A stretch of DNA of 64,000 bases from Thermoanaerobaculia bacterium (GCA_963664405.1 OY761158.1:5408001-5472000); one strand, 5' to 3'; positions 47,907 to 63,144 are shown, numbered from the stretch's first letter. The notes: generated by a model not told the origin, from the letters alone. Made by a program: numbers and translations.

Positions 47907-48030
47907 TGGCACCTTCCGCTAGAAAGTGCGCCAACCCTCGACTCCTTGTTGAGACGAAACCGCGCAACCACCGAAAGTTGTCCGCGGAAGGAAGGTACCA
48001 GATTGTCACCTTCCACCGAATTTCGCGACA
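47907..48030. repeat. 27-bp sites downstream of the recombinase (48004-48030; degenerate 47907-47933)
   Basis: TGTCACCTTCCACCGAATTTCGCGACA and TGGCACCTTCCGCTAGAAAGTGCGCCA. Confidence 0.65.
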
Positions 48031-48061: not shown

Positions 48062-48589
48062 CTACCATTTGGTCCGGAACTCCTGCAGCACGAACTCGGG
48101 GCTCATGTTCAGGTAGATCTCGGTCGTCGACAGGTGATCGTGGCCGAGCATCATCTGCAAGGCGCGTGTCGAGCCACCCTTGTGAATCCACAGAATCGCA
48201 AAAGTGTGACGCAACACGTGGGGACTGACGGGACGGGAGATCGTCGCCGCGTTGGCGACGCGTCGCACGGTGCGCTGAGTGGTCCGCGCCGAGAAGTCGA
48301 TTGTCTCGTGGAGGATGAAATAGTGCTCGAAAAGAGCCCGCACACGGTCCGAGAGAGGTACAACTCGGAGCTTGGTGCGCTTTCCATAGGGGCCACCCTT
48401 TCCGTACAGCCGGATGCAGCGCTGCTGCCACTGGATCTGGTTCCTGGTCAAGTTGGCCAGCTCGGAGACGCGCATACCCGTCTCGAGAAGAGCCCAGATA
48501 CAGATCTTCTCCTCCATTGTCTCGCAGGCGTTGATGATTCGATCGGCTTCCTCAATCGACAGTGGCTCACGTTTGTGTTGGTATCTCAT
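48062..48589 (-). CDS. Minimal tyrosine recombinase (catalytic domain only, 175 aa)
   Basis: Complete R-K-H-R-H-Y set: ETGMRVSE, YGKGG, HVLRH, LGH and TEIY. No N-terminal core-binding domain. Confidence 0.92.
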   Translation of the reverse strand: MRYQHKREPLSIEEADRIINACETMEEKICIWALLETGMRVSELANLTRNQIQWQQRCIRLYGKGGPYGKRTKLRVVPLSDRVRALFEHYFILHETIDFSARTTQRTVRRVANAATISRPVSPHVLRHTFAILWIHKGGSTRALQMMLGHDHLSTTEIYLNMSPEFVLQEFRTKW

Positions 48590-48666
48590 GGCACAGTCCA
48601 TCAGAGACTGCGCGGGAGGAAATCGCAGCTCCTCCCTGAGAGCCGGCTCTAGAGAGCTTTCTGGGT

Positions 48667-48716
48667 ACTCATTCGGATCGAGCTATGCGTGTCGTAGTGC
48701 GCCACATAAAGCGACA
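48667..48716. repeat. Linker motif plus 27-bp site (48690-48716)
   Basis: ACTCAT-N9-GCTAT-N3-TGTCGTAGTGCGCCACATAAAGCGACA, 7 bp from the kinase stop codon. Confidence 0.85.
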
Positions 48717-48723
48717 TCCTCTC

Positions 48724-51403
48724 TCAGTCGGCGGGAACGAGATGCTTCAGCTCCTCGGCCCAGTTCAAGACGACCTGGATGTGGGCTGGCGCGCCCTCGA
48801 GAGCCTTGATGAAGACGAAATCTCCGTTGGGTAGGACGTCGTACTGGGGGAAGGGGGACGGGTGTGAGTAGTAGCGCGCCTCGAAGAGGAGCTTCGGCCG
48901 CGAGTAGGTGAAGCTCTGGCCACCTGCCGACTCAGCCACGTCGACCTTCATCAACAGGTCACCGTTACGGTAAAAGAGCTCGCGCCCTTGCGTGCTCCAG
49001 ACGGGGTTTCGACCACCCCCGGTCGAGATTCGATACTTCGCCTCCGAGGTTCCGGCCAGCGGTCGCACGTAGACATTCAGCTGACCGTCTTCGTCGCTGA
49101 CGTACGCCACCCACCGCCCGTCGGGGGAGGATCTAGAGCTGGTCTCGTAGACCGGCGTCGCAAGAAAAGGTCGCGGCTCTGTTTCACCGGCAGGCAGCAT
49201 CATGATGTCGTGGAGGTTTACCGGATCCACCAGCTGGTAGAGAAGATCTCCGTTCGGCGTGAAGGAATGCGCCACCTGCACCGGCCCGGGTGCAGTAACG
49301 GCAATTTCGTCGGCGCTGCCATCGGCCAGCTTCGAGAAGAGGCCGATCCCTCCAGGTCGAGTCGACTGGAAGACCAGGCGATCACCTTCGGCGCTCCACA
49401 CCGCGAAGCCCGATCCCTTGAAGGTCAGCTGCCGCCGACTCTCCTGGGCTAGATCGTAGATCCAGACTTCGCGCCGCCGCAGGTCGGTGGCGTTGTTGCC
49501 GCTGAGGACCGTTACCGATACCTGATCTCCTGCTGGTGAGACGCGAGGCGCCAGATAGCTGTCGGGTGGGATCTCGAGCGGCGTCTCTTTGCCACGGCGA
49601 TCCACTCGTACCAGGGTCGACAGCCGTTGAGCGCTGATCGGCGTGGTTGCAAGGAGGTTTCTCGCGACCGCGTATTGCGACACTCCCCGCGCCACCGGTA
49701 CCGGCGTGCCGGTGACGCTCCCGGCTTCGACATCGAAGGGCACGGCCATCAAGTCGTTGTCGCGGCGAAACAGAAGATGTCCGGTCGATACGACCTGGGG
49801 GTCACGGGCGTCATCGAGCAATGTGAGTCTTCTGCCCGAGGCAACGTCGATGGCGATCAGGCTCGGGAGGCGCGAGGCGGCCACCACCTCCGCGAGGACG
49901 GTCTTTCCGCCGGGGAGTAGCTCGGGTGAGCTCGGTTTCCCTCGCCGCCCTGTTTCGCCGCCAGAGTCTGGAGCGTCCGCGTCGTCCGCGGGGACGGGAG
50001 GATGATAGAGCTCCGCAGTGCCGCCGACGGCCGGTACCACCAGCAACTCGTCCGAATCGAGGGTGGCGAAGACGATGCGATCGTCGTCACCCCAGGCACC
50101 GCCTCGGGGGATTGGGACATCGCAGATCGCTACCGGGGCTCCCCCCCCCCTGGGTCGGCAACCTCTTGAGCTCCGTGCCCTGAAAGAAGGCGATCCACTC
50201 GCCGTCCGGTGAGAACAGCGGAAACTGCGCCCCCCGGGTTCCCGCTAGCGGCTGGCTCGAGGGATCCGCGATTCTGCGGAGATGGAGCTGGTCTTGAGCT
50301 ACGAAGACGAGCTGGAGTCCGTCGGGCGATAGTGCGAGCTCGCGAAGCCCTTCAAGCCCTCTACCGTTGGCGCCGGTGATACTCAGCCGGGCCGGTCGTA
50401 GCGTCACGGGCTTTTCGTTTCGCGGCGCGATCAGGGTCGTCAGCAGCATGCCGGCTGCCAGTCCAACAGCAAGCGCGAGGGCAACACGTCCCCGGACCTT
50501 CGTGGGGGTGACCGCAAACTCGGAACCTGCGTTCGGGTCGGTAGCTGCGTCCCTCGCCTCCTCGATCTCGAAGCGAGCGTCACCGATGTCGCGCAATCTC
50601 TCGCTGGGCTCTCTCTTTAGGCAACGACGGAGCAGACGCTGGATCGCTCTCGGCGTCGGCGCAAGCCTTCCCCAGTCCAACTCTGCCCGAAGAACCGCTG
50701 CCAGTGTGTCGGCCGCATCGTCGCCCTCGAAGGCGCGGCGGCCTGCAAGCGCCTCGTAGAGGCACGCGCCGAAGGCCCATACGTCGGCCCGCTTGTCGAC
50801 CTCCCTGCCCTTCGCCTGTTCGGGCGACATGTACGCCGCGGTGCCAAGGATCTGGCCCTGGCGCGTTGCCGCGTAGGTGAGCGTGGGCGACTCCGAGGAG
50901 TCGCTCTCCGGGCCTGTCGCCGGAGCCATTGCCTTGGCCAGACCGAAGTCAAGAATCTTGACGTTCCCGTCGTCGGTGACCTTGATGTTCGCGGGTTTGA
51001 GATCCCGGTGGATCACGCCCTTTTCGTGGGCTGCCTCTAGACCTTCCGCGATCTGCAAGAAAACGGGCAAGGCTTCATCGACGGGGACAGCACCTCTCTT
51101 GATGCGCTCGGCGAGTGTCTCGCCTTCGACCAGTTCCATGACCAGGAAGTTAGTGTCCCCTTCCTTCTCGAAGCCGTAGAGCGTGGCGATGTTGTTGTGA
51201 TTCAGTGAGGCGAGGACGCGAGCCTCGCGCTCGAAGCGCGCCAGCCGCTCAGGATCTGTGGAAACCTCATCGAGAAGGAGCTTGATCGCTACCTCGCGCC
51301 CGAGCTTGGTGTCCTTGGCGCGATAGACCTCTCCCATTCCTCCCACTCCGAGGCTTGAGACCACTTCATAGTGGCCAAGGCGAGTGCCAGCTTCGAGCGC
51401 CAT
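48724..51403 (-). pseudogene. Ser/Thr kinase-TM-TolB/PD40 propeller K1, frameshifted at a G10 tract (50141-50150)
   Basis: Hanks motifs (Gx[24 protein letters not shown]); ORFs 50087-51403 and 48724-50046 join if the tract is G9 or G6. Confidence 0.85.
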
Positions 51404-51463
51404 GACTTGGCGACATCTTACCCGTCGCCCGTGGGATCAGCGGCTCAGAGAGCTGATTCCCGC

Positions 51464-51540
51464 TGTCGCGATGCACCCGGAACTGCGACAGCAGGAGCCT
51501 ATTCAGATCGAGCTATGGCTGTCGCAGTCCGCCACCAAAG
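51464..51540. repeat. 27-bp site (51464-51490), 29-bp linker and left part of an IS-interrupted site (51520-51540)
   Basis: TGTCGCGATGCACCCGGAACTGCGACA..GCCTAT-N9-GCTAT-N3-TGTCGCAGTCCGCCACCAAAG. Confidence 0.85.
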
Positions 51541-51671
51541 TCATCATAGAAATGCGCTCGGGTGCGCCCGAGGTCAAGAAGTAGGGAGTTGTGAAGAACG
51601 GTCCTCCGTCGAAAGGGTCAAACTCGAGATGAGTAATTACCCTGGGCTTAGCCCCAAGAAGGAGGACCGAA

Positions 51672-52710
51672 ATGGAACGATATCTCGGACTCGACATGCA
51701 TCGGGACAGCTGCACGGCCGTCGTGCTGAGTGCCGGTGGGAAGAAGACCGGCGAGCAGGTGATGGCGACCGAAACCGCCGCGTTGGTGCAGTACATAAAG
51801 AGTCTCTCGGGAGAGCTTCACGTCTGTGTGGAGGAGGGCGAGTGGAGCGAGTGGGTAGTGGAGATCCTCAATCCATGGGTCTCGCGGGTGGTTTCGGCGT
51901 CGGCTCCGGGTCGCAAGGGTCCTCGCAGCGATGCGATGGACGCTCGCGAGCTCGCCGAGCGTCTGAGGACTCGCCAGACGGGTCCACCGGTCTACAAGGC
52001 GTCTCGGGAATGGGCGCGGCTGCGCGAGGCAGTGCCGCCTGGAGGGCAAGCTGCTCCAGGACGCGGTACGAGCCAAGCAGCGGCTCAAGAGTCTGTATCG
52101 ACGTCGTGGTGTGGCGTGCTTGGGCGAGGAGGTCTACTCCCCGCAGCTGCGCGAGCAGTGGCACGCGAAGCTGCCCGCAAGCGTGCGGCCATCCGCCGAG
52201 CTCCTGGGTCAGGAGCTCGATCACCTCACAGAGCTGCACCAGACCGCCGAGCGGCAGATGTGTGCAGCCGCTGGCAAGTTTCCGATGTGGCGCAAGCTCC
52301 AGACGGCTCCGGGGATCGGCCGCAAACGATCGGCACAACTGCTAGCGATCGTGGTGACCCCTCATCGCTTCCGCACCAAACGACTCTTCTGGTCCTACTG
52401 CGGACTCGGTGTGGTCACGCGCTCGACCTCGGACTGGGTCCGCCAGCCGAACGGTCAGATGGTGCGGGCTCCAGTGATCCAGGCCCGGGGGCTGAACAAA
52501 GCCTGCAACCGTCAGCTCAAGGGGCTCTTTGTGGGCGCCGCGAAGACGGCTCTCCGCTGCCGGCGACCCAATCCCCTGCGCGACGCCCACGAACGGATGG
52601 TCGAGGCCGGGACCAAACCGAATCTGGCCCAGCTCACCATCGCGCGAAAGATCGCTGCAGTGGTGCTGGCCATGTGGAAGAGCGAAAGCGAGTATCGGAT
52701 CATGAGCTGA
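51672..52710 (+). pseudogene. IS110 transposase, +1 frameshift near 52035
   Basis: YLGLDMH, VEEG, SDAMDA; second frame has PGIG, F.TKR.FWSYCGLG..TRST and IARKIAA..LAMWK. Confidence 0.85.
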
Positions 52711-53090
52711 GTCTCACCTTCGACCGCTTCCCTGCCGGGCTCTGGCGCCGAGCGCCGGACCGAGACGGGGATCGGTGCCGGGTCGGACTCAGAGATCCAA
52801 AGGTCGAGGGAGAGTCTCCACTGTCGTCTTGTGCCCCATCATCGATGGGAGTAACTGACATAAGTCTAGGCCCCCTCCCAGGACCAAAAGAAGAGATGGC
52901 CCACGAGGCCCTGATGGAAGGCTGGTCCCAGCATACGAGGACCCACACACTCACTTCTCATCTCACGAGCTCACCCGCAACAGGAACCGATCCCCGAACC
53001 GGAAGACGCCTCGCGGATCCACTCGGTAGAGGAATAGCCCGCGCTCGATCCCAAGACCTCGAGCGCTCAGGGAAACTCCGTCTTGACATC
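52711..53090 (+). ncRNA. Predicted bridge/seek RNA of the IS1111-type element (bounds approximate)
   Basis: CCAAAG (52797-802) matches left target plus core; CTGTCGTCTT (52821-30) is the reverse complement of core plus right target AAGACGACAG; ATGGAAG (52914-20) matches the donor right end. Confidence 0.7.
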
Positions 53091-53104
53091 GATTTCTATG
53101 GAAG

Positions 53105-53176
53105 ACGACAGCTCGCCGATTTCGGGGCCTATCGCCTTTCAGCTATTCGTGTCGTGGTCCGCCAGATTCTGCGACA
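53105..53176. repeat. Right part of the interrupted site, 39-bp linker and 27-bp site (53150-53176)
   Basis: ACGACA..GCCTAT-N9-GCTAT-N3-TGTCGTGGTCCGCCAGATTCTGCGACA, 6 bp from the K2 stop codon. Confidence 0.85.
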
Positions 53177-53182
53177 CGGTGA

Positions 53183-55888
53183 TCAGTCGGTCGAGGTGAG
53201 TCGTTTCAACTCGTCGAACCAATCGAGAACGACGTTGATGTAAGAAGGCGTCGCTTCCGGAGGCTGGAGCATCAGGAAACGATTGCCGTCGGACGTGACA
53301 TCGTAGTGGGAGACCCCCTTGCCGAGCCGAGGGGCCGGCCATCCGCTGAGGAGAACCTGCGCTGGCTCGAACGTGAAGACAGAGCCGTTGGTCTCGACAG
53401 GAATAACCATGAGGAACTCGCCCTGGCGAAAGAACAGTTCCCGTCCGTCGCGGGACCACACCGGGTCCCGGCCGCCGTTTGCGGAGACCGGAGTGGAACC
53501 TACAGGCTCAGGATACGACGTGACGTGGACCTCCTTTTCGCCCGTCACCTCCGACACGTATGCGATCCATCGCCCGTTCGGCGAGAAGGTCGGCGAGTCC
53601 TCGTTGTGCGGACGCGAGAGAAAATCGCTCGGCCCCCCCTCTTCGAGGATGCCAATGTCCGATCCGGCCGGCGTGGTCTCGAAAAAGGCGAGGGCGTTGC
53701 CATCTAGGCCCCAAGAGGTCGGAAACTGACGGCCTGCCCGCGCCAACAACTGCTCCGGCTCCCTCCCCCCATCGGCCGGCACGAAGTGCAGGTCAAAGTG
53801 CGCGGCTCCCCTGACTGCGGAGAATGTGAGTCCGTTACGCTGCTGGTCCCAGACGGGCGTGAGATTGTATCCGTCGGTGGTCAACAACGTCCGGGTGCCA
53901 CTTTCGACATCGATGACCCAGATGTCGGGCGTAATCGTTACGGCGATCTGATTGCCATCCGCCGATAGACGAGGGGTCTTGTAAGGGGCAAGGCCGTCGA
54001 CAACCGGCGTCACCTGCTGGTTCTGTCGATCGACCCAGACGAGCGTCGTGTCCGTCGCGCCGGAATCTTCCGGCGGGTAGGCGAGCGTTCCGGTGTCGGA
54101 CACCGCGAAATGCGCGCCACCCAGCCCGGCGAGATACGGAACCCTCTCGGTGGTGGGAATGGGAGAGCCACTGGCACTCAGCCGGTCGAGATCAAACGCA
54201 ACCACCATCAAGGCCCCATCCTGGGCATATACAAGATGTCCTGTTTGGACGTAGCGGGCACCGTGGGCATTGGGGAGCACCCAGTCCCATTCATTTGACG
54301 CAAGGGACAAGATCGCGGCTCGCGGCCCGTCGTTGTAGTTGATGGTAAACAGGACGTGCTGACCGCCGGGGAGAATCTGGGGATCGAAGTGCCGAAATTC
54401 CCCCACCGCGGCGTCTGGAAGCGTCAGTCGTTCCGGTACTCCGGCACCTGCTGACACTTTGTAGAGGCCAAACGTGAAATGCGAAAAGATGATGGTGTCA
54501 TCACGCCCCCAGCTCGCGCTCGGGAAGAGCCCGATCGTGTCGCAAATCTTCACGGGGGACCCACCCAAAACCGATACTTTCTGCAGCGTCCTGTTGGCAA
54601 AGAAACCGATCCATTCGCCGTTCGGTGAAAAGAATGGAGCTTGCGCGCCTTCGGTACCCGCGATCGGCTGAGCTTCGAACTCGTCGATCGGGCGGAGAAA
54701 CAGCTGCGTCGATCCACCCCCAGGCTGCGCTGCCGTGTAGACCAGGAGTTGACCATTGGGCGAGATTGCGATGGCACTAACGGCGGCCTCCTCGCCCAAC
54801 GACAGCTCCTGGTCGGGCGGAAGCGCGACAACGAGTCGAGCCGGAGACCGCACCTCGGCCTGCCGCAGGGCCCACCAGGCGCCGGCTCCCGCTCCCACTG
54901 CGAACAGCGCGGTCAGCGCCCATGGGACCAGTCGCTGCCAACGGTGAGCCTGAAGCGGCCGTTCGGCCTGGCGTGCATCAACGGCCGGAGCCGCGAAGGC
55001 ATCACCGATCTCGATCCGCGCGTCGGCCTGAAGCTCATCGCCGACCGCCTGAAGCTCGATCCCGACATCCAGGGCCGACTGCCAGCGTCGCTCGGGGTCT
55101 TTGGCCAGGCAGCGGCTCACAACCCAGTCGAGGCGAGGTGGAGCGATCTCTTGGACCGCCCTCAGCGGTCGAGGCTCCGAGGCCATGATGGCGGTGGTCA
55201 GGGAAGCTTGGTTGTCGCCCTGGAAAGGGCGCTCGCCGGTGACCATCTCGTAGAGCACGCAGCCCAGTGCCCAGATGTCGGTGCGGGCGTCGGTGTCCTT
55301 GCTCTCCAACTGCTCCGGTGCCATGTAGAGCTGCGTACCGAGGATCGAGTCCTGACCGGTGATCGGCTGCATCCTCGTCGGTGACTCTGTGTTGGCCGCC
55401 AATGGCTCCGGCTCGATGCTCTTCGCCAGTCCGAAGTCCAGCACCTTGACGCCGGTCTTCGTCAGCATCACGTTGCCGGGCTTCAGATCCCGATGCACCA
55501 CTCCGGCCTTGTGGGCGGCATCGATCGCTGCACCGATCTGGCTCCCGATCTCTAGCGCCTGAGCGATGGGAAGAGCCCCCTTCTTCAACCCCTTCTCAAG
55601 CGTCTCGCCTTCCACCACCTCCATGACCAGGAAGCGAGTGCTGCCGTCTGTGTCGAAGCTGTAAAGCGTGGCGATGTTCGGGTGATTGAGGCCGGCCAGG
55701 ACCTTGGCCTCGCGCTCGAACCGCGCCATCCTCTCAGGATCCCCGGATACCTCCTCCAATAGCAGCTTGACCGCCACCTCACGACCGAGCTTCGTGTCTT
55801 TCGCTCGGTACACCTCTCCCATGCCTCCCGCACCGAGGGAGGAGACGATCTCGTAGTGGCCCAGGATTGTGCCTGGTTTTAGCTGCAT
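53183..55888 (-). CDS. Ser/Thr kinase-TM-TolB/PD40 propeller K2 (intact, 901 aa)
   Basis: Hanks motifs, TM helix, repeated FSPNG.WI blades and C-terminal YDV..DG.RFLM..VVLDWFDELKRL. Confidence 0.92.
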   Translation of the reverse strand: MQLKPGTILGHYEIVSSLGAGGMGEVYRAKDTKLGREVAVKLLLEEVSGDPERMARFEREAKVLAGLNHPNIATLYSFDTDGSTRFLVMEVVEGETLEKGLKKGALPIAQALEIGSQIGAAIDAAHKAGVVHRDLKPGNVMLTKTGVKVLDFGLAKSIEPEPLAANTESPTRMQPITGQDSILGTQLYMAPEQLESKDTDARTDIWALGCVLYEMVTGERPFQGDNQASLTTAIMASEPRPLRAVQEIAPPRLDWVVSRCLAKDPERRWQSALDVGIELQAVGDELQADARIEIGDAFAAPAVDARQAERPLQAHRWQRLVPWALTALFAVGAGAGAWWALRQAEVRSPARLVVALPPDQELSLGEEAAVSAIAISPNGQLLVYTAAQPGGGSTQLFLRPIDEFEAQPIAGTEGAQAPFFSPNGEWIGFFANRTLQKVSVLGGSPVKICDTIGLFPSASWGRDDTIIFSHFTFGLYKVSAGAGVPERLTLPDAAVGEFRHFDPQILPGGQHVLFTINYNDGPRAAILSLASNEWDWVLPNAHGARYVQTGHLVYAQDGALMVVAFDLDRLSASGSPIPTTERVPYLAGLGGAHFAVSDTGTLAYPPEDSGATDTTLVWVDRQNQQVTPVVDGLAPYKTPRLSADGNQIAVTITPDIWVIDVESGTRTLLTTDGYNLTPVWDQQRNGLTFSAVRGAAHFDLHFVPADGGREPEQLLARAGRQFPTSWGLDGNALAFFETTPAGSDIGILEEGGPSDFLSRPHNEDSPTFSPNGRWIAYVSEVTGEKEVHVTSYPEPVGSTPVSANGGRDPVWSRDGRELFFRQGEFLMVIPVETNGSVFTFEPAQVLLSGWPAPRLGKGVSHYDVTSDGNRFLMLQPPEATPSYINVVLDWFDELKRLTSTD

Positions 55889-55949
55889 GAATTGAGCAGC
55901 ATCTTACTCGCCGCCTCTGGGATCTACCGCTCAGAGGCTGAATCTGGCG

Positions 55950-56042
55950 TGGCGTCTTCCACCATGAAAGACGACAGCCCCTCTGCTCAGAGGCTCATCT
56001 GCTTTCAGCTATACGTGTCGTCCTTCGCCACATTTCACGACA
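55950..56042. repeat. Paired 27-bp sites (55950-55976, 56016-56042) with 39-bp linker
   Basis: TGGCGTCTTCCACCATGAAAGACGACA / TGTCGTCCTTCGCCACATTTCACGACA. Confidence 0.88.
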
Positions 56043-56050
56043 TGCTTCGC

Positions 56051-58728
56051 TCAGTCGGTGGGAACCAGACGCTGCAGCTCCTCGAACCAGTTCTGGACCA
56101 GGACGACGTGACTGCTCGAGCCCCCCTCGGTCGTCTCCGCCGGTTTGACCATCAGGAACCTCTGACCGTCAGGGTGGATGTCGTACATGCGGCCGATTCT
56201 GACGGCATAGCTCCCCGTGAAGAGCTCCTGTGGGCTCCCAGCCTCGAACGCGGGCTCGGTTGTGACCGGCACTGCCATCAGCCGATCGCCGGCACGATAG
56301 AAGATCTCGCTCCCGTCGGGCGACCATAGCGGTTCGCTGCCACCGCCCGCTGAGATCGGGAAGCGACCGCCGTCGACCTCAGGGAATGGCCTCACATAGA
56401 TCTCGTCCTCGCCTGATTCGTCCGACTGGTAGGCCAGGAAACGACCGTCGGGTGAGATCTCTCCACTCCGCTCATTGATATCCGTGGCGAGAAGCAGCTG
56501 TGGCGCTCCCTCGCCTTCCAGCGACAGCACCCCCAGATCGAATCCCCCCCCTGCGCCGACGCGGTAGACGAGAAGCTTGCCATCGGGAGAGATCGACGAG
56601 GGAAATAGACTGTCTGGGCTGTCGGTGAGAGGCCTTACAGCGCCCGTACCGTCAGCCGCCCTCTGGTAGACGTCGAAGGTCCCGCCACGAACCGAGCTGT
56701 ACACCACTTCGCGGCTGTCAGGAGTCCAGATCGAATACATGTCTGGTCCCGGATCGCGGGTCAACCGGTCCAGGGTCTCCCGACCGAGATCCCAGATCCA
56801 CACATCCTGTTCTTCATCCTGGGAAGAGACCGCTACCCGCTGTCCATCCGGAGAGATGCGGGGAAGCAGGTAGGGCCGAATCGGGGCCAAGAGGGCCTCC
56901 TCCCTCCCGTCCCGTCCCACCCAGACCAGGGCCGTCTGCACCCCTCCCCCTGCGCCACCCGTGACGTACACCAAGGATCCGTCCTGCGAGAAGTCGAAGT
57001 TCACAGCACCTGTGGGCTTCGTGCCGACGCCTTCCAAGACGGGCACCGGATTTCCCCGGACCTCAAGACTTCCTGCATCGAAGGCCACCGCACGTAACGT
57101 ACCGCTCACTCCATAGACCAGGTGCCCAGTGGGCACGTACCGGGCGCCGGCCCCTCCAGAGACCAGGACCTTCCGCTCCCCGGTGGCGAGAGATAGGGCC
57201 ACGATCTGCGTCTGCTCGACGTTCGCGCTCGTAAATACCGTGAAAAGGACGGCCTCGCCGCCGGGTAGTACATCGGGGAAGCGATAGCTACTCTCTCCTC
57301 TCTCGGGATCTGGCGCTACCAGCAGCTCCGGCTCGCCGCCTCCCCCCGACATCCGATAGAGGCCCTCGGAGATGGAGCTGAAGATGATGGTGTCGTCCGC
57401 GCCCCAGCTCACACCGGGGAGAATGCCGCCGGGTATGTCGGCCAAGGTCACGATTGGTCCCCCGAGAATGGAGACCTTCTTGAGAGTTCCGCCGGATGCG
57501 AAGCCGACCCAGGCCCCGTCAGGTGAGAGGAAAGGAGTCCTCGCGCCCTCCGTGCCTTCCAGGTGGGACCCGACGAGGCTGCCCACGTGGCGAACATAGA
57601 GAGAGCCTCCGCTCTGGTAGACCACCGCACGACCGTCGGTTGTCACCGCCAGATCGCGCCCGTTTGGGAGAACGCTCACCGGCGCGCTGGGAGCGGCGCT
57701 CAGCACCGAGCGAACCACGGGGCGCTCGGTCGGCAGTGGAGCAGGCTTCAGCATCCAGACTGCGCTGGCGATCACTGCGACGGCAGCGAGGGCGGCGAGA
57801 ATGAGGGGGACGGGACTGCGCTTCTCCGCCATAACCGCCCCGGGGGTCTCCTCGTCCTCCGGAGCCGCCATGACTTCTTCGATCTCGATGCGGGCATCAC
57901 CGATATCGTGCAGCCTCTGCCTTGGGTCCTTGCTGAGACACCGCCGCAACAGTTCTCTGAGCTTTCTGGGCGTGTCGCCAGGGAGCCCTTCCCAGCCCGG
58001 GTCAGACTTGAGCACCGACGCCAAGGTGGTGGAAGCGTCCTCGCCCTCGAAGACTCGCTTGCCGCTCAGCGCCTCGAACAGACAGACCCCGAAGGCCCAC
58101 ACATCGGCGCGCTTATCGACGGTCTTTCCTCGCGCCTGCTCGGGAGCCATGTAGGCGGCTGTGCCGAGAATCTGACCCCGTTGAGTTGCTGCAAGAGTGA
58201 GGGTCGGAGATTCGGACAAGCGCCCTCTCCGGTGGCACTAGCTTCCACAGCCATCGCCTTGGCCAACCCGAAATCGAGGAGCTTCACGGCACCCTCGTCC
58301 GACACTTTGATGTTCGCGGGCTTCAGATCGCGATGGATGACGCCCTTCTCGTGGGCTGCCTCCAGCCCCTCAGCGATCTGCAAGAAGACGGGCAATGCTT
58401 CGTCGACTGGCATGGCTCCTCTCTTGATGCGATCCGCTAGAGTCTCGCCCTCCACCAGTTCCATGACCAGGAAGCTGGTGTCGCCTTCCCGCTCGAAGGC
58501 GTGAAGGCTGGCGATGTTCTTGTGGTTGAGCGAGGCCAGAACCCGCGCCTCCCGCTCGAGGCGAGCTAGGCGCTCCGGGTCAGAGGAGACCTCGTCAAGC
58601 AGGAGTTTGACCGCCACCTCGCGCCCGAGCTTCGTGTCGCGAGCTCGGTAGACCTCTCCCATGCCCCCGGCACCGAGGGAGGAGACCACTTCGTAGTGGC
58701 CGAGGCGAGTGCCAGCTTCTAGCGCCAT
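56051..58728 (-). pseudogene. Ser/Thr kinase-TM-TolB/PD40 propeller K3, single frameshift near 58221
   Basis: ORFs 58066-58728 and 56051-58219 join at ..ATGEG-LSESPTLT with one added base. Confidence 0.85.
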
Positions 58729-58787
58729 GACTTGGTGACATCTTACCCGTCGCCCGGGGGATCAGCGGCTCAGAGCTCGATCTGTGC

Positions 58788-58880
58788 TGTCGCACCTCAC
58801 CGAATTTCACGACAGCCCCTTCTCTCAGAGGGTTATCTGCTTTCGGCTATACCTGTCGCAGAGCGCCAGGGATTGCGACA
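58788..58880. repeat. Paired 27-bp sites (58788-58814, 58854-58880) with 39-bp linker
   Basis: TGTCGCACCTCACCGAATTTCACGACA / TGTCGCAGAGCGCCAGGGATTGCGACA. Confidence 0.9.
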
Positions 58881-59481: not shown

Positions 59482-59508
59482 TGTCGTAGTGCGCCACATT
59501 TCGCGACA
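59482..59508. repeat. 27-bp site
   Basis: TGTCGTAGTGCGCCACATTTCGCGACA, 4 bp from a kinase C-terminal stub. Confidence 0.85.
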
Positions 59509-60224: not shown

Positions 60225-60316
60225 CGTCGTAATGCGCCGAATTTCACGACACACCTCTGCTCGAAGGCTTATCTGCTTCCGGCTATGCGTGTCGCGGTCC
60301 GCCACATTTCACGACA
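60225..60316. repeat. Paired 27-bp sites (60225-60251, 60290-60316) with 38-bp linker
   Basis: CGTCGTAATGCGCCGAATTTCACGACA / TGTCGCGGTCCGCCACATTTCACGACA. Confidence 0.9.
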
Positions 60317-60326
60317 CGCCTTCGCC

Positions 60327-63000
60327 TCACGAGCCCCCCTCGGAGAACATCTCGAGCACCTTGGCCCGCCAGTTCTGGACGAAGACTAGACGCTCCTCCT
60401 CGGCCTCTGCCGCCTGGATCATGAGGAAGCGACCGTCGGGGTGGATGGCGTAGTTCTGGAAGCTCAAGGGTGTGCGCAGGTAATCATCCACGAAGAGTGG
60501 CTCGGGACGCCGGGGGGACGAAGCGCTCGCCGGAGATCTCGACCGGGAGCGTCATCATGTGGGTCGGGCTGCGGTAGAGGATCTCGCTGCCTTCGGGGGA
60601 GAAATCGGGCTCCCCGCCGCCGTCGAAGGTGAGCTGGCGCGGCTCGCCGGGACCGGGGAAGGGCCGGATCCAGACGTTCTCCTGTCCCTGAATCACCACC
60701 GAGTAGGCGATCCAACGTCCGGCGGGGTGGAAGCGGGCGGCGGGGACCACGTTCCCCTCGAGGAGGGTCTCGGACTCTCCGCTCTCCCGGTCGAAGATCC
60801 AGAGTCCGGAGACATCGATGTTCGTGTAGAGCATGTAGCGCCCGTCCGGGGAGAAATCCAGCGGTACCTGCGGGTGCTCCGACGGTACGAGCCGCTCCGC
60901 CGGGGCACTGCGATCGGCAGGCTGGATGTAGAGCTGAAAGCGTCCCTCGAGGCGATCCGACATGAAGACGATCTCCTGGCCGTCGGGGGGCACCCACATC
61001 AAGCCAGCGTTGCGATTCCCCTCCTGGGTCGGGCGGGTCCAGGAGCCGGTCCCGAGGTTGAGCATCCACTGCTCTAAGTCCCCCCTGGCGTTGCGGGCGC
61101 CCACCGAGATCCGGCGCCAGTCCTGGGAGTGTCGCGGCGACGCGAAAGGCTTGCGCTCCGGCGCCACCTCCTCGATGTCCCGGCCGTCCCGACTCACCCA
61201 AACCAGCCGGGACACGCTCCGACTCCCGAGAACGTAGAGCAGGTCGCCCGAGTCGGCGAGCGCGAAGCGGCCCCTATCGACGCCAACGCCGAGGAGCGGC
61301 GCCACCCCGTTCTCGACCTGACGCGCCGGGCCGAGGAGGGCGGCGGTCTCGGGATCGATCGGCGCCGCCCACAGTCCGCCCTCGCGATAGAAAACCAAAA
61401 CCCCCGGATCGAGATAGAACGGCTGCGCCCCAGGGAGGAGAACCCGTTCCTTGCCAGTCTCGAGGTCCACCGCCTGAACATCGCTCCAGAAGCCCTCCTG
61501 ACGCTCGGATCTCAAGTGGGCCAGGACGACCCTCTCACCAGGCAGAAGCGCGGTGCCGATGCCATGCCCCACCTGCTCGGAAACACCCCCGTCCGCCGGA
61601 ATCCGCCATAGCTCGCGAGACGTGGGGCTTCCTATCTCAGGAGTGTAGTAGAGGAAGCCATCGCGCCCCCAGACACCGGTCCTGCGGATCCCTTCCACCA
61701 GAGCGCTGGCGCCTCCACCCCCCACGGGAAGCGTCTTCAGACTGCCCCCGGCCACGAAAGCAAGCTGCTGGCCGTCGGGCGAGAAGATCGGGCGGAGGGC
61801 ACCGTCGCTGCCGGAGATGCGATCGGCAACCAGGGAGTCGAGAGAGCGCCGGTAGAGGCTGGTCTCGGCTCCCTCGCGACGGCCGAAGACCACCATCCGA
61901 CCGTCCGGGGAGAGCACGAAGGGCTGATCCGGAGTTGCCTCGAGGTCGAGAGCCGTGACCGTCCAGGTGTCGGCCGAAGTGGCGTCGCTGGCCACGTTCT
62001 CCTCCCCACCACGGTCCAGGACGTAGCCGAGGGCGAGACCGACCACCAGGGCGAGGAGGGCGAGTGCTCCGGCGAGGACCGCCGACACCGGTCGCCTGGT
62101 AGGCGCCGCCTCGCCACCGGCTGGCGCGTCGATGTCCGGCTGCTCGAGCACTCCTCGGATCTCGATCCGGACGTCGGCGATGTCGTGAAGGCGCTCCCGC
62201 GGGTCCCTCGTCAGACACCGTCGGAGCAGTGTCCTGATCGGCCTCGGCGTCGCCGGGGGGAGCTTGCCCCAGTCGATCTCCGCTCTGAGCACCGCTGCCA
62301 GCGTGTCGGCGGCATCGTCGCCGCGGAACGCCCTCGATCCCGTCAGCGTCTCGTAGAGACACACGCCGAAGGCCCAGACGTCGGCCCTTCTATCGACCTC
62401 TTTCCCCTTGGCTTGCTCAGGCGACATGTAGGCCGCCGTGCCGAGGATCTGGCCTCGGAGCGTGGCCGCCTGGGTCAGCGTGGGCGATTCCGAAGGGTCG
62501 CTCTCCGGCCCCGTCGCCGGAGCCATTGCCTTGGCCAGACCGAAGTCAAGAATCTTGACGTTGCCGTCGTCGGTGACCTTGATGTTCGCGGGTTTGAGAT
62601 CCCGGTGGATCACTCCCTTCTCATGGGCTGCCTCGAGGCCCTCGGCGATTTGGAGAAACAGAGGGATCGCCTCATCGACGGGAATCGGGCCGTGAGCGAT
62701 CCGATCGGCCAGAGTCTCACCCTCCACCAGTTCCATGACCAGGAAGCCCGTGTCACCTTCCCGCTCGAAGGCGTGGAGGCTGGCGATGTTCTTGTGGTTG
62801 AGCGAGGCGAGAACTCGCGCCTCCCGCTCGAAGCGAGCTAGACGCTCCGGGTCAGAGGAGACCTCGTCGAGCAGGAGTTTGACCGCTACCTCGCGACCGA
62901 GCTTCGTATCCTTCGCTCGATACACTTCTCCCATGCCTCCTGCACCGAGGGAGGAGAGCACTTCGTAGTGGCCGAGGCGAGTGCCAGCTTCTAGAGCCAT
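60327..63000 (-). pseudogene. Ser/Thr kinase-TM-TolB/PD40 propeller K4, frameshift near the 3' end in a 6-nt homopolymer (60512-60517)
   Basis: 838-aa ORF. Removing one base gives the family tail RPEPLF...NYAIHPDGRFLMI...FVQNW ending at 60327. Confidence 0.82.
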
Positions 63001-63060
63001 TGACTTGGCGACATCATACCCGTCGCCCGGGGGATCAGCGGCTCAGAGCTCGATCTGTGC

Positions 63061-63144
63061 TGTCGCACCTCACCCAAAAGTGCGACAGCGGGAGGCTTAT
63101 TCGCTTCGAGCTATTCTTGTCGTAGTCCCAAGGGGTCCCTGTGG
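63061..63144. repeat. 27-bp site (63061-63087), 30-bp linker and half-degenerate site (63118-63144)
   Basis: TGTCGCACCTCACCCAAAAGTGCGACA..GCTTAT-N9-GCTAT-N3-TGTCGTAGTCC. Confidence 0.82.

Follow-up and report, generated by a model that had tools for sequence, protein, structure and literature searches.

A putative kinase-gene deletion scar in a chromosomal cassette array bounded by 27-bp recombinase-type sites

The stretch of DNA analysed here, 64,000 nucleotides (nt) of a Thermoanaerobaculia bacterium (GCA_963664405.1 OY761158.1:5408001-5472000), is called the window throughout, and unprefixed positions count from its first letter. It carries an array in which Ser/Thr-kinase genes and other genes are bounded by sites of 27 base pairs (bp). 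The sites are of two types, A with the centre CACC and B with the centre CGCC. The present text concerns one of them, site X, which is split by an insertion sequence (IS) and stands between an A site and a B site. The preliminary description of this locus held that removal of the IS at 51541-53104 leaves three sites in a row, with 29 nt in front of X and 39 nt behind it, and these coordinates and lengths are correct. Its account of the arms is also correct: GCTAT stands in front of X just as in front of B sites, and the site at 55950 has the same right arm, AAAGACGACA, with GC after it. The features of the locus are as follows.

51464-51490, plus strand: A-type site (centre CACC) TGTCGCGATGCACCCGGAACTGCGACA, the first of the three and the 5' site of a kinase cassette; 31.3 bits
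51491-51519, plus strand: 29-nt A-to-B linker of the short class, equal to the last 29 nt of a 39-nt linker subfamily
51520-51540, plus strand: left arm and centre of site X (B-type, CGCC), positions 1-21, TGTCGCAGTCCGCCACCAAAG
51541-53104, plus strand: IS1111-type insertion sequence of 1564 bp, with a transposase gene at 51672-52710 and subterminal inverted repeats CATAGAAAT/ATTTCTATG
53105-53110, plus strand: end of the right arm of site X (ACGACA), positions 22-27
53111-53149, plus strand: 39-nt A-to-B linker, which together with the right half of X and the left half of the next B site makes a 66-bp gene-less unit
53150-53176, plus strand: B-type site TGTCGTGGTCCGCCAGATTCTGCGACA, the third of the three, 6 nt past the stop codon of a kinase gene of 901 amino acids (aa); 33.7 bits

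Compared with the B site at genome 4996744, the rejoined X has 2 deviating positions out of 27. Since AAG occurs at each of the two junctions of the IS, the ends of the element are uncertain by about 3 nt. Because of this, and because an IS-free allele was not found, the 27-bp length of the rejoined X is partly a matter of boundary choice; the boundary taken is the one that restores the canonical length of the site. Six sequencing runs, available as contigs only, hold this stretch, and contigs of two of them (X19 and X20) cover 51421-55102 with the IS present. The joints listed in the run contigs were set aside, since they lie inside paralogous kinase genes and look like assembly cross-overs. 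The promoter scan found no sigma-70-like promoter in 51350-53250, and no Rfam family was found in the window.

The sites of the window belong to a family that is spread over the whole genome. In the window, 9 matches to the pattern TGTCGN-N13-17-NCGACA were counted where 0.57 would be expected, and none of 100 shuffles reached 9. A position weight matrix (PWM) was built from 89 seed sites and run over the genome of this Acidobacteriota bacterium (6.78 Mb). In total, 124 matches scored 14 bits or more, whereas a shuffled sequence of 2 Mb gave 1. About 100 matches reach 24 bits or more; these are distributed over nine arrays and have a common orientation within any one array, except for the T sites at the array heads. 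The consensus of the approximately 100 copies is TGTCG-N5-CRCC-N8-CGACA, in which TGTCG (positions 1-5), C11, C13, C14 and CGACA (positions 23-27) are invariant. Position 12 divides the sites into A (n = 41) and B (n = 58). B sites lie 6-8 nt past the stop codons of genes. A sites are found about 60 nt 5' of the start codons of kinase genes; behind them come a linker of 39 nt (sometimes 30 nt) and then the next B site. Both Ser/Thr-kinase genes and other genes are bounded in this way, the short cassettes having no A site. The A site-linker-B site junction is also present in three other metagenome-assembled genomes (MAGs), in one of which (L018) it stands between two kinase genes. Site arrays were absent from 40 genomes of the same family or order, which had 0-5 sites each, vs 88 here; this synteny comparison was made at the family/order level, the genus having no second genome in the collection.

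We assessed whether the site could act as a folded structure by counting Watson-Crick pairs between its two halves in 99 sites. Positions 6/22 pair in 46 sites (49.6 expected), 7/21 in 32 (33.9 expected) and 8/20 in 22 (22.3 expected). None of the five position pairs checked at 6-10 and 18-22, beyond the invariant 5-bp arms, showed an excess of pairing. A hairpin, or attC-like, reading of the sites was rejected on account of this lack of covariation, and the site thus behaves as a duplex protein-binding site, not as a folded one. Invariant TGTCG and CGACA arms, an asymmetric C-R-C-C centre and crossovers at positions 11-17 (see below) are the layout of a simple tyrosine-recombinase core site. 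In such a core site, inverted binding arms enclose an overlap of 6-8 bp where the strands are exchanged; here the overlap measures about 7 bp and the arms about 10 bp.

The limits of the cassettes can be read from nearly identical copies in different arrays. The segment at genome 28188-31902 (array 1) is 99.8% identical over 3715 bp to the segment at 755842-759556 (array 3), and their neighbours differ. The identity begins at position 11 of a B site, runs through the gene, its leader, the A site and the 39-nt linker, and ends at position 16 of the next B site. An 803-bp cassette present in arrays 3 and 7 (99.1% identical) has its boundaries at positions 11 and 17, and in a third cassette pair (99.5% identical) the identity stops at position 15. 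Two metagenome contigs have the left half of the B site at 53150 in common with the window, up to position 15 (L065) or 18 (L064), and differ from it in the right half. Because the identity of nearly identical cassettes starts and stops inside B centres, at positions 11-17, we regard the sites as crossover sites. The three pairs show that cassettes are exchanged between arrays through crossover in B centres, and strand exchange is best placed within CGCCASN. These boundaries also mean that a cassette extends from B centre to B centre and includes its own A site and linker. On the plus strand, a kinase cassette has the order B right half, gene, leader, A site, linker of 30 or 39 nt, B left half. 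A further pair (95% identical, genome 3953477/3962761) was considered as an A x A crossover and rejected: it sets an internal A site against the A site of a second array head. The A sites of array heads tend to share their right half (ACAGAAGACGACA in two arrays), which is suggestive of the entry of cassettes at A sites.

Site X does not fit the order of a normal junction. From position 18 of X onward, the sequence of the window agrees with the 5' tail of a kinase cassette, while the left arm and centre of X are B-type. It is flanked by A-to-B linkers on both sides; the one in front stands as before a B site, and the one behind stands as behind an A site. Genome-wide, 29 of the 31 junctions with an A-to-B linker have an A-type site in front of the linker. 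The only two with a B-type centre in that place are X and a site at window position 60225. Of the 29 nt of the linker before X, 27 agree with the final 29 nt of the linker at genome 21277. The linker of 39 nt behind X is at most 33/39 identical to other linkers of the genome, but 36/39 to that of contig L065 and 35/39 to that of contig L064, the two contigs recovered when metagenome contigs were scanned with 30 nt of this right linker. L065 carries a kinase gene, a leader, an A site TGTCGCGATCCACCCGGAAAGACGACA ending in GGAAAGACGACA, the linker and a B site equal to that at 53150 through position 15, and its right arm is the same as that of X. In L064 the linker stands between an A-type site and a B site identical to that at 53150 through position 18. 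The kinase of L065 is 77-84% identical to kinases of this genome. As a separate observation, L065:1236-1330 holds a B site, about 60 nt, a second site with a degenerate left arm and then the 3' end of a kinase gene, and looks like another short gene-less unit in a different organism.

The second unusual junction of the window resembles X.

60225-60316, plus strand: second putative scar, in which a site with a B-type centre (CGTCGTAATGCGCC) has a right arm of A type (GAATTTCACGACA) and is followed by a linker of 38 nt and a B site at 60290

Two kinase-cassette tails that are intact, at genome 3964952 and 6520286, have exactly this right arm; they also have the same linker, except that its first base is missing at 60225.

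Because an A-to-B linker follows a B-type centre in only these two of 31 junctions, and because in the metagenome the linker of X follows a true A-type site, we read X as the scar of a deletion between a B and an A site (B x A). On balance, X is probably what remained when a kinase gene was lost from an array of cassettes bounded by tyrosine-recombinase core sites. The B site at the 3' end of a kinase cassette would recombine with the A site of the same cassette. Such an event would remove the gene and leave a hybrid site, with the left arm and centre of B and the right arm of A, together with an orphaned linker. The product would be the remnant of a cassette, 66 bp from centre to centre and without a gene. 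The IS1111-type element, of a family that targets the right arm of the sites, would have inserted into X later. Since the normal unit runs from B centre to B centre, X would record an off-pathway deletion and not an ordinary excision. The preliminary description had seen in X the hybrid expected after excision of a gene lying between its two flanking sites. The hybrid context and the sites of mobile cassettes agree with it, whereas the proposed unit does not, for the cassette extends from B centre to B centre. Its second suggestion, an unused attB-like slot, finds nothing in its favour, and the linker behind X belongs behind A-type sites.

Several points weigh against this explanation. The hybrid nature of X is seen in its flanks and in the similarity of its right arm, without a diagnostic base. 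No IS-free allele, excised circle, gene in the slot or joint at the site was seen in the six runs, of which only contigs were available. A search of relatives for the same two linkers with a gene between them had been suggested; the right linker does adjoin a gene in L065, but the metagenome scan found no contig with both linkers around a gene. At 77-84% identity, the L065 kinase is not established as the gene lost from the slot. The B and A centres differ at position 12, and tyrosine recombinases usually need identical overlap regions. For this reason B x A recombination would be a rare side reaction. Finally, slippage on the shared arms would yield the same product.

It is unlikely, in our estimate, that the gene was lost in this last way, by recombinase-independent slippage or short-homology recombination between the B and A repeats with the same outcome. 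B and A share arms of 5-8 bp, in direct orientation and about 2.7 kb apart, and the difference between the centres at position 12 disfavours a tyrosine-recombinase reaction, as is well established for these enzymes. On the other side, exactly 27 bp were kept at the join in two independent scars with different linker subfamilies, and crossovers at site centres are seen for three other cassette pairs. We regard it as rather improbable that X is simply one more B site, followed by a 66-bp unit that never had a gene joined to it, whether as a gene-less cassette in its own right, a junction duplication or an empty slot. In favour of this, normal B sites and the rejoined X differ by no more than 2 of 27 positions, and gene-less cassettes are known in integrons, as excerpts of PMC6557892 report. 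This reading is opposed by the right arm and linker of the unit, which belong behind an A-type site in 29 of 31 junctions, in L064 and in L065, where the cassette is that of a kinase. The scar at 60225, with a right arm identical to those of two intact kinase-cassette tails and a linker one base shorter, is also what a gene loss predicts, and X bears no marks of a preferred entry point, for which the head module is a better candidate. That the 27-bp palindromes serve as transcription-factor operators or as terminators, multiplied by tandem duplication of the kinase genes and without any movement, is very improbable: A sites do lie about 60 nt upstream of kinase starts beside a 48-nt leader conserved at 96%, B sites do lie 6-8 nt past stops, and the sites do resemble protein-binding sites, but cassettes 99.1-99.8% identical begin and end inside site centres among unrelated neighbours, the same sites bound unrelated genes (cupin, DUF3047, a gene of unknown function, the recombinase), they accompany a recombinase gene across phyla, and 40 related genomes hold 0-5 of them vs 88 here.

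The element inserted in X encodes an IS110/IS1111-type DEDD transposase, with 28.8 bits to PF01548 (the N-terminal piece; cut-off 29) and 41.2 bits to PF02371. The gene is frameshifted near 52035, as judged against the intact 344-aa gene of a 70% identical copy elsewhere. Downstream of it lies a non-coding region of 394 nt, and the inverted repeats stand a few nt inside both ends of the IS. The DEDD transposase, the subterminal repeats, the downstream non-coding region and a single specific target are together the features of the IS1111 group, as they are described in excerpts of PMC11187229; according to the same excerpts, some members target integron attC sites or repetitive extragenic palindromic (REP) sequences. 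The family has three copies and two left-end fragments in the genome, and all five left ends lie in a site or a half-site: four border on ..AAAN within a site of the TGTCG type, and the remaining one adjoins the half-site of an array head. At the copy at genome 4985443-4986894, the site rejoins to 27 bp or 29 bp, depending on how the ends are read. The same IS was found at about 99% identity in a marine-sediment metagenome. The right arm of the 27-bp sites (..AAAN / NCGACA) is a new target. The element shares the DEDD transposase, the subterminal repeats, the non-coding region and the strict insertion point with the IS1111/IS110 elements that are guided by a seekRNA or bridge RNA. It differs from the group that targets attC in its target, the right arm of a 27-bp site, and this copy has a frameshifted transposase.

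We next consider which enzyme could act on the sites. The array ends with a recombinase gene.

48062-48601, minus strand: Xer-like tyrosine recombinase of 179 aa, catalytic domain only; last gene of the array and the sole intact copy in the genome

The gene lies between the B site at 48690 and the A-type site at 48004. Its product scores 102 bits against PF00589 and remains under every NCBIfam cut-off: the best match there is XerA, below its cut-off, and the scores for the integron-integrase model TIGR02249 and for NF011946 are 68.3 bits (cut-off 265) and 47 bits (cut-off 435). R44, K68, H128, R131, H154 and Y163 are invariant in 25 of 25 aligned family members, and we take them to have the catalytic roles that such motif positions suggest. 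Other copies in the genome are fragments only, according to tblastn. A 35-residue piece occupies the corresponding place at the tail of array 3, and a reversed C-terminal piece lies beside the head of array 4. The family itself is large and uniform, and is found in many phyla. E <= 1e-3 was reached by 2691 of 2762 candidates; lengths of 152-200 aa and identities of 57-92% were found among the best 120.

In these relatives, the gene is accompanied by sites. A TGTCG-N16-18-CGACA site lies within about 330 nt of the gene in 14 of 36 loci, these being the 36 best, with the 9 weakest or partial of 45 left out. Near the gene, 21.9 kb of sequence contain 20 such sites, whereas 363 kb elsewhere contain 10. 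At least seven loci have the gene directly behind a module that begins with an A-type site of 27 bp. A spacer of about 60 nt leads from there to CGACA, and 3 nt further on stands a second 27-bp site in inverted orientation, so that CGACA-NNN-TGTCG..CGACA comes after the first site and the spacer. The loci with the module come from Rhodospirillales, Scalinduaceae, Ignavibacteria, Acidobacteriota and an unclassified bacterium. It turned out that the same module stands at the promoter-proximal end of arrays in the present genome, at 8 of 9 array ends studied; the head of array 3 is a half-site with a T site and has no A site. The module shared by genes and array heads links the site family to the recombinase family. 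The 179-aa recombinase at the array tail is probably the enzyme that acts on the sites.

Four observations count against this assignment. The genome has no recombinase gene at the array heads, as a six-frame profile search behind the T sites showed, except for the reversed C-terminal fragment at array 4. The protein is small and has no N-terminal DNA-binding domain. Two full-length Xer-like genes, for proteins of 329 and 340 aa (genome 3565746 and 5350062), are other candidates. The same is true of a 286-aa recombinase that is linked to an IS91-type transposase and present in five copies; at least three of these lie inside or at the ends of arrays 1 and 2.

These five copies belong to 2.6-kb elements that combine an IS91-type Y2 transposase with the 286-aa tyrosine recombinase, at genome C1 34790-37386, 41380-43976, 615191-617709, about 596900-599457 and near 887650. 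Two of the elements occupy an identical position within an A-to-B linker, another borders on the right half of a head A site, and one is 17 nt from a head T site; the element seems to favour arrays. A gene for a 229-aa serine recombinase (resolvase) at genome C1 6509415-6510104 (L015:7215-7904) lies about 160 nt before the first B site of array 9, and no such gene adjoins the other arrays. Outside the T site, about 130 nt are conserved at three heads (genome C1 747662, 3944777 and 6523212), with no match to any recombinase. A transfer RNA at an array head, guessed from the sequence, was rejected, as ARAGORN finds none. Many relatives of the 179-aa recombinase (L019-L049: Aerophobetes, Atribacteria, the candidate phyla radiation and archaeal MAGs) are without the TGTCG module; there a conserved ribosome-binding stretch is followed by the gene, and toxin-antitoxin-like genes adjoin. 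In L033, a long attC-like palindrome stands in front of the recombinase gene, which may therefore itself move as a cassette. Upstream of the gene in L039, L041 and L045, the arms of the module are altered on both sides together (GTTCGC..GCGAAC, GCGCA..TGCGC). Co-evolution of recombinase and site would give such paired changes.

Taken as a whole, the arrays are similar in several respects to integrons, a class that includes CALIN arrays without an integrase and cassettes without an ORF. The IS1111-group element targets the sites of cassettes, as ISKpn4 and ISPst6 target attC (excerpts of PMC11187229). Cassettes are co-oriented and mostly contain a single gene, with a site at the 3' end of the gene that is split at each boundary, and a distinct head module stands at the promoter-proximal end. 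There are gene-less cassettes, and cassettes are exchanged by crossover in the gene-3' site (three pairs, positions 11-17). The differences concern the site, the enzyme and the position of its gene. Integron attC sites are folded sites of 57-141 nt with R and L boxes, whereas the sites here are of a 27-bp duplex type and show no structural covariation. The candidate recombinase of 179 aa has no N-terminal domain and remains below the cut-off of the integron-integrase model. Its intact gene is at the tail of the array and not beside the head, where integrons have their integrase gene, adjoining attI and divergent from the cassettes; in other phyla the gene follows the module. In addition, the kinase cassettes bear a second site (A) and a leader of their own.

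The arrays can also be compared with dif modules, in which short core sites of Xer-type recombinases (28 bp for pdif, 27 bp here) bound shuffled accessory modules. Excerpts of PMC10132070 describe dif modules of Acinetobacter plasmids that are shuffled between replicons and dedicated IS that target pdif sites. In the excerpts available, pdif modules use the host XerC/XerD; here, by contrast, a dedicated small recombinase accompanies the site module. The present system is chromosomal and comprises about 100 sites, spread over nine arrays. Whereas pdif sites alternate in orientation, all sites of at least 24 bits in an array here are in direct orientation. In the literature searched, which returned papers on integrons, pdif and IS1111, we found no description of these sites, of the recombinase family as a cassette enzyme or of kinase cassette arrays. 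The excerpts of PMC8138268 contained no matching passage on recombinases that consist of a catalytic domain only.

It is possible, and we propose it tentatively, that these elements form a separate and widespread cassette platform that is not an integron. It would consist of a recombinase of about 175 aa with a catalytic domain only and 27-bp duplex sites, with A at the array head and B for exchange, and scars would be A x B by-products. The module of sites appears to be shared from Acidobacteriota to Rhodospirillales, anammox bacteria and Ignavibacteria. In the present bacterium, the platform would be used to store and reshuffle roughly two dozen cassettes of about 2.7 kb, the size of the kinase cassettes, among nine chromosomal arrays. 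Six cassettes of this size class were examined, and all encode sensor Ser/Thr kinases. Such arrays would explain the expansion and rearrangement of the sensor-kinase repertoire of this bacterium. Integrons are usually seen as the only system for the capture and shuffling of single-gene cassettes, and a different, far simpler pair of recombinase and site appears to fulfil the same task here. Crossover points can be read straight from the genome, and the cargo consists of large signalling genes instead of small accessory genes. Should the small recombinase prove to be the enzyme, this system of site-specific recombination would be very compact, with a protein of 175 aa and a site of 27 bp. X and the site at 60225 would give a concrete form to the B x A side reaction, and in this form it can be tested.

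The remaining features of the array in the window are the following.

48004-48030, plus strand: A-type site A' TGTCACCTTCCACCGAATTTCGCGACA, which closes the array at its tail and lies 31 nt beyond the stop codon of the recombinase gene; PWM score 24.2 bits
48690-48716, plus strand: B-type site that follows the 3' end of the first kinase cassette at a distance of 7 nt; 35.4 bits
48724-51403, minus strand: cassette gene for a Ser/Thr kinase with a PD40 beta-propeller (Pfam Pkinase, PD40), in two open reading frames (ORFs), 48724-50046 and 50087-51403
53183-55888, minus strand: intact cassette gene for a 901-aa Ser/Thr kinase with PD40
55950-56042, plus strand: regular junction, with an A site at 55950, a 39-nt linker and a B site at 56016
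58788-58880, plus strand: regular junction, with an A site at 58788, a 39-nt linker and a B site at 58854
59482-59508, plus strand: B site between the gene of a 153-aa unknown protein and a cupin gene, flanking short cassettes without an A site
63061-63087, plus strand: A site of the cassette of an 838-aa kinase (60484-63000)

The left half of A' matches the canonical first site of the recombinase modules in other phyla. The units between the sites of the window are four genes for Ser/Thr kinases with PD40, a cupin gene, the gene of a DUF3047 protein, the 153-aa ORF and the recombinase gene. Two of the four kinase genes are split (48724-50046 and 50087-51403; 56051-58219 and 58066-58728). Part of the array is thus in decay or silent. 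A degenerate B site (TGTCGTAGTCCCAAGG..), which the weight matrix missed, lies at 63118-63144, after the A site at 63061 and a linker of 30 nt. Directly 5' of the kinase starts there is a leader of 48 nt (51403-51450, 55889-55936, 58728-58775 and 63001-63048). It is 96% identical among three cassettes whose coding DNA is about 75-82% identical, and it contains a GGCGAC..GTCGCC hairpin around TAAGAT. This leader may be a promoter or a control element of the 5' untranslated region that is borne by each cassette.

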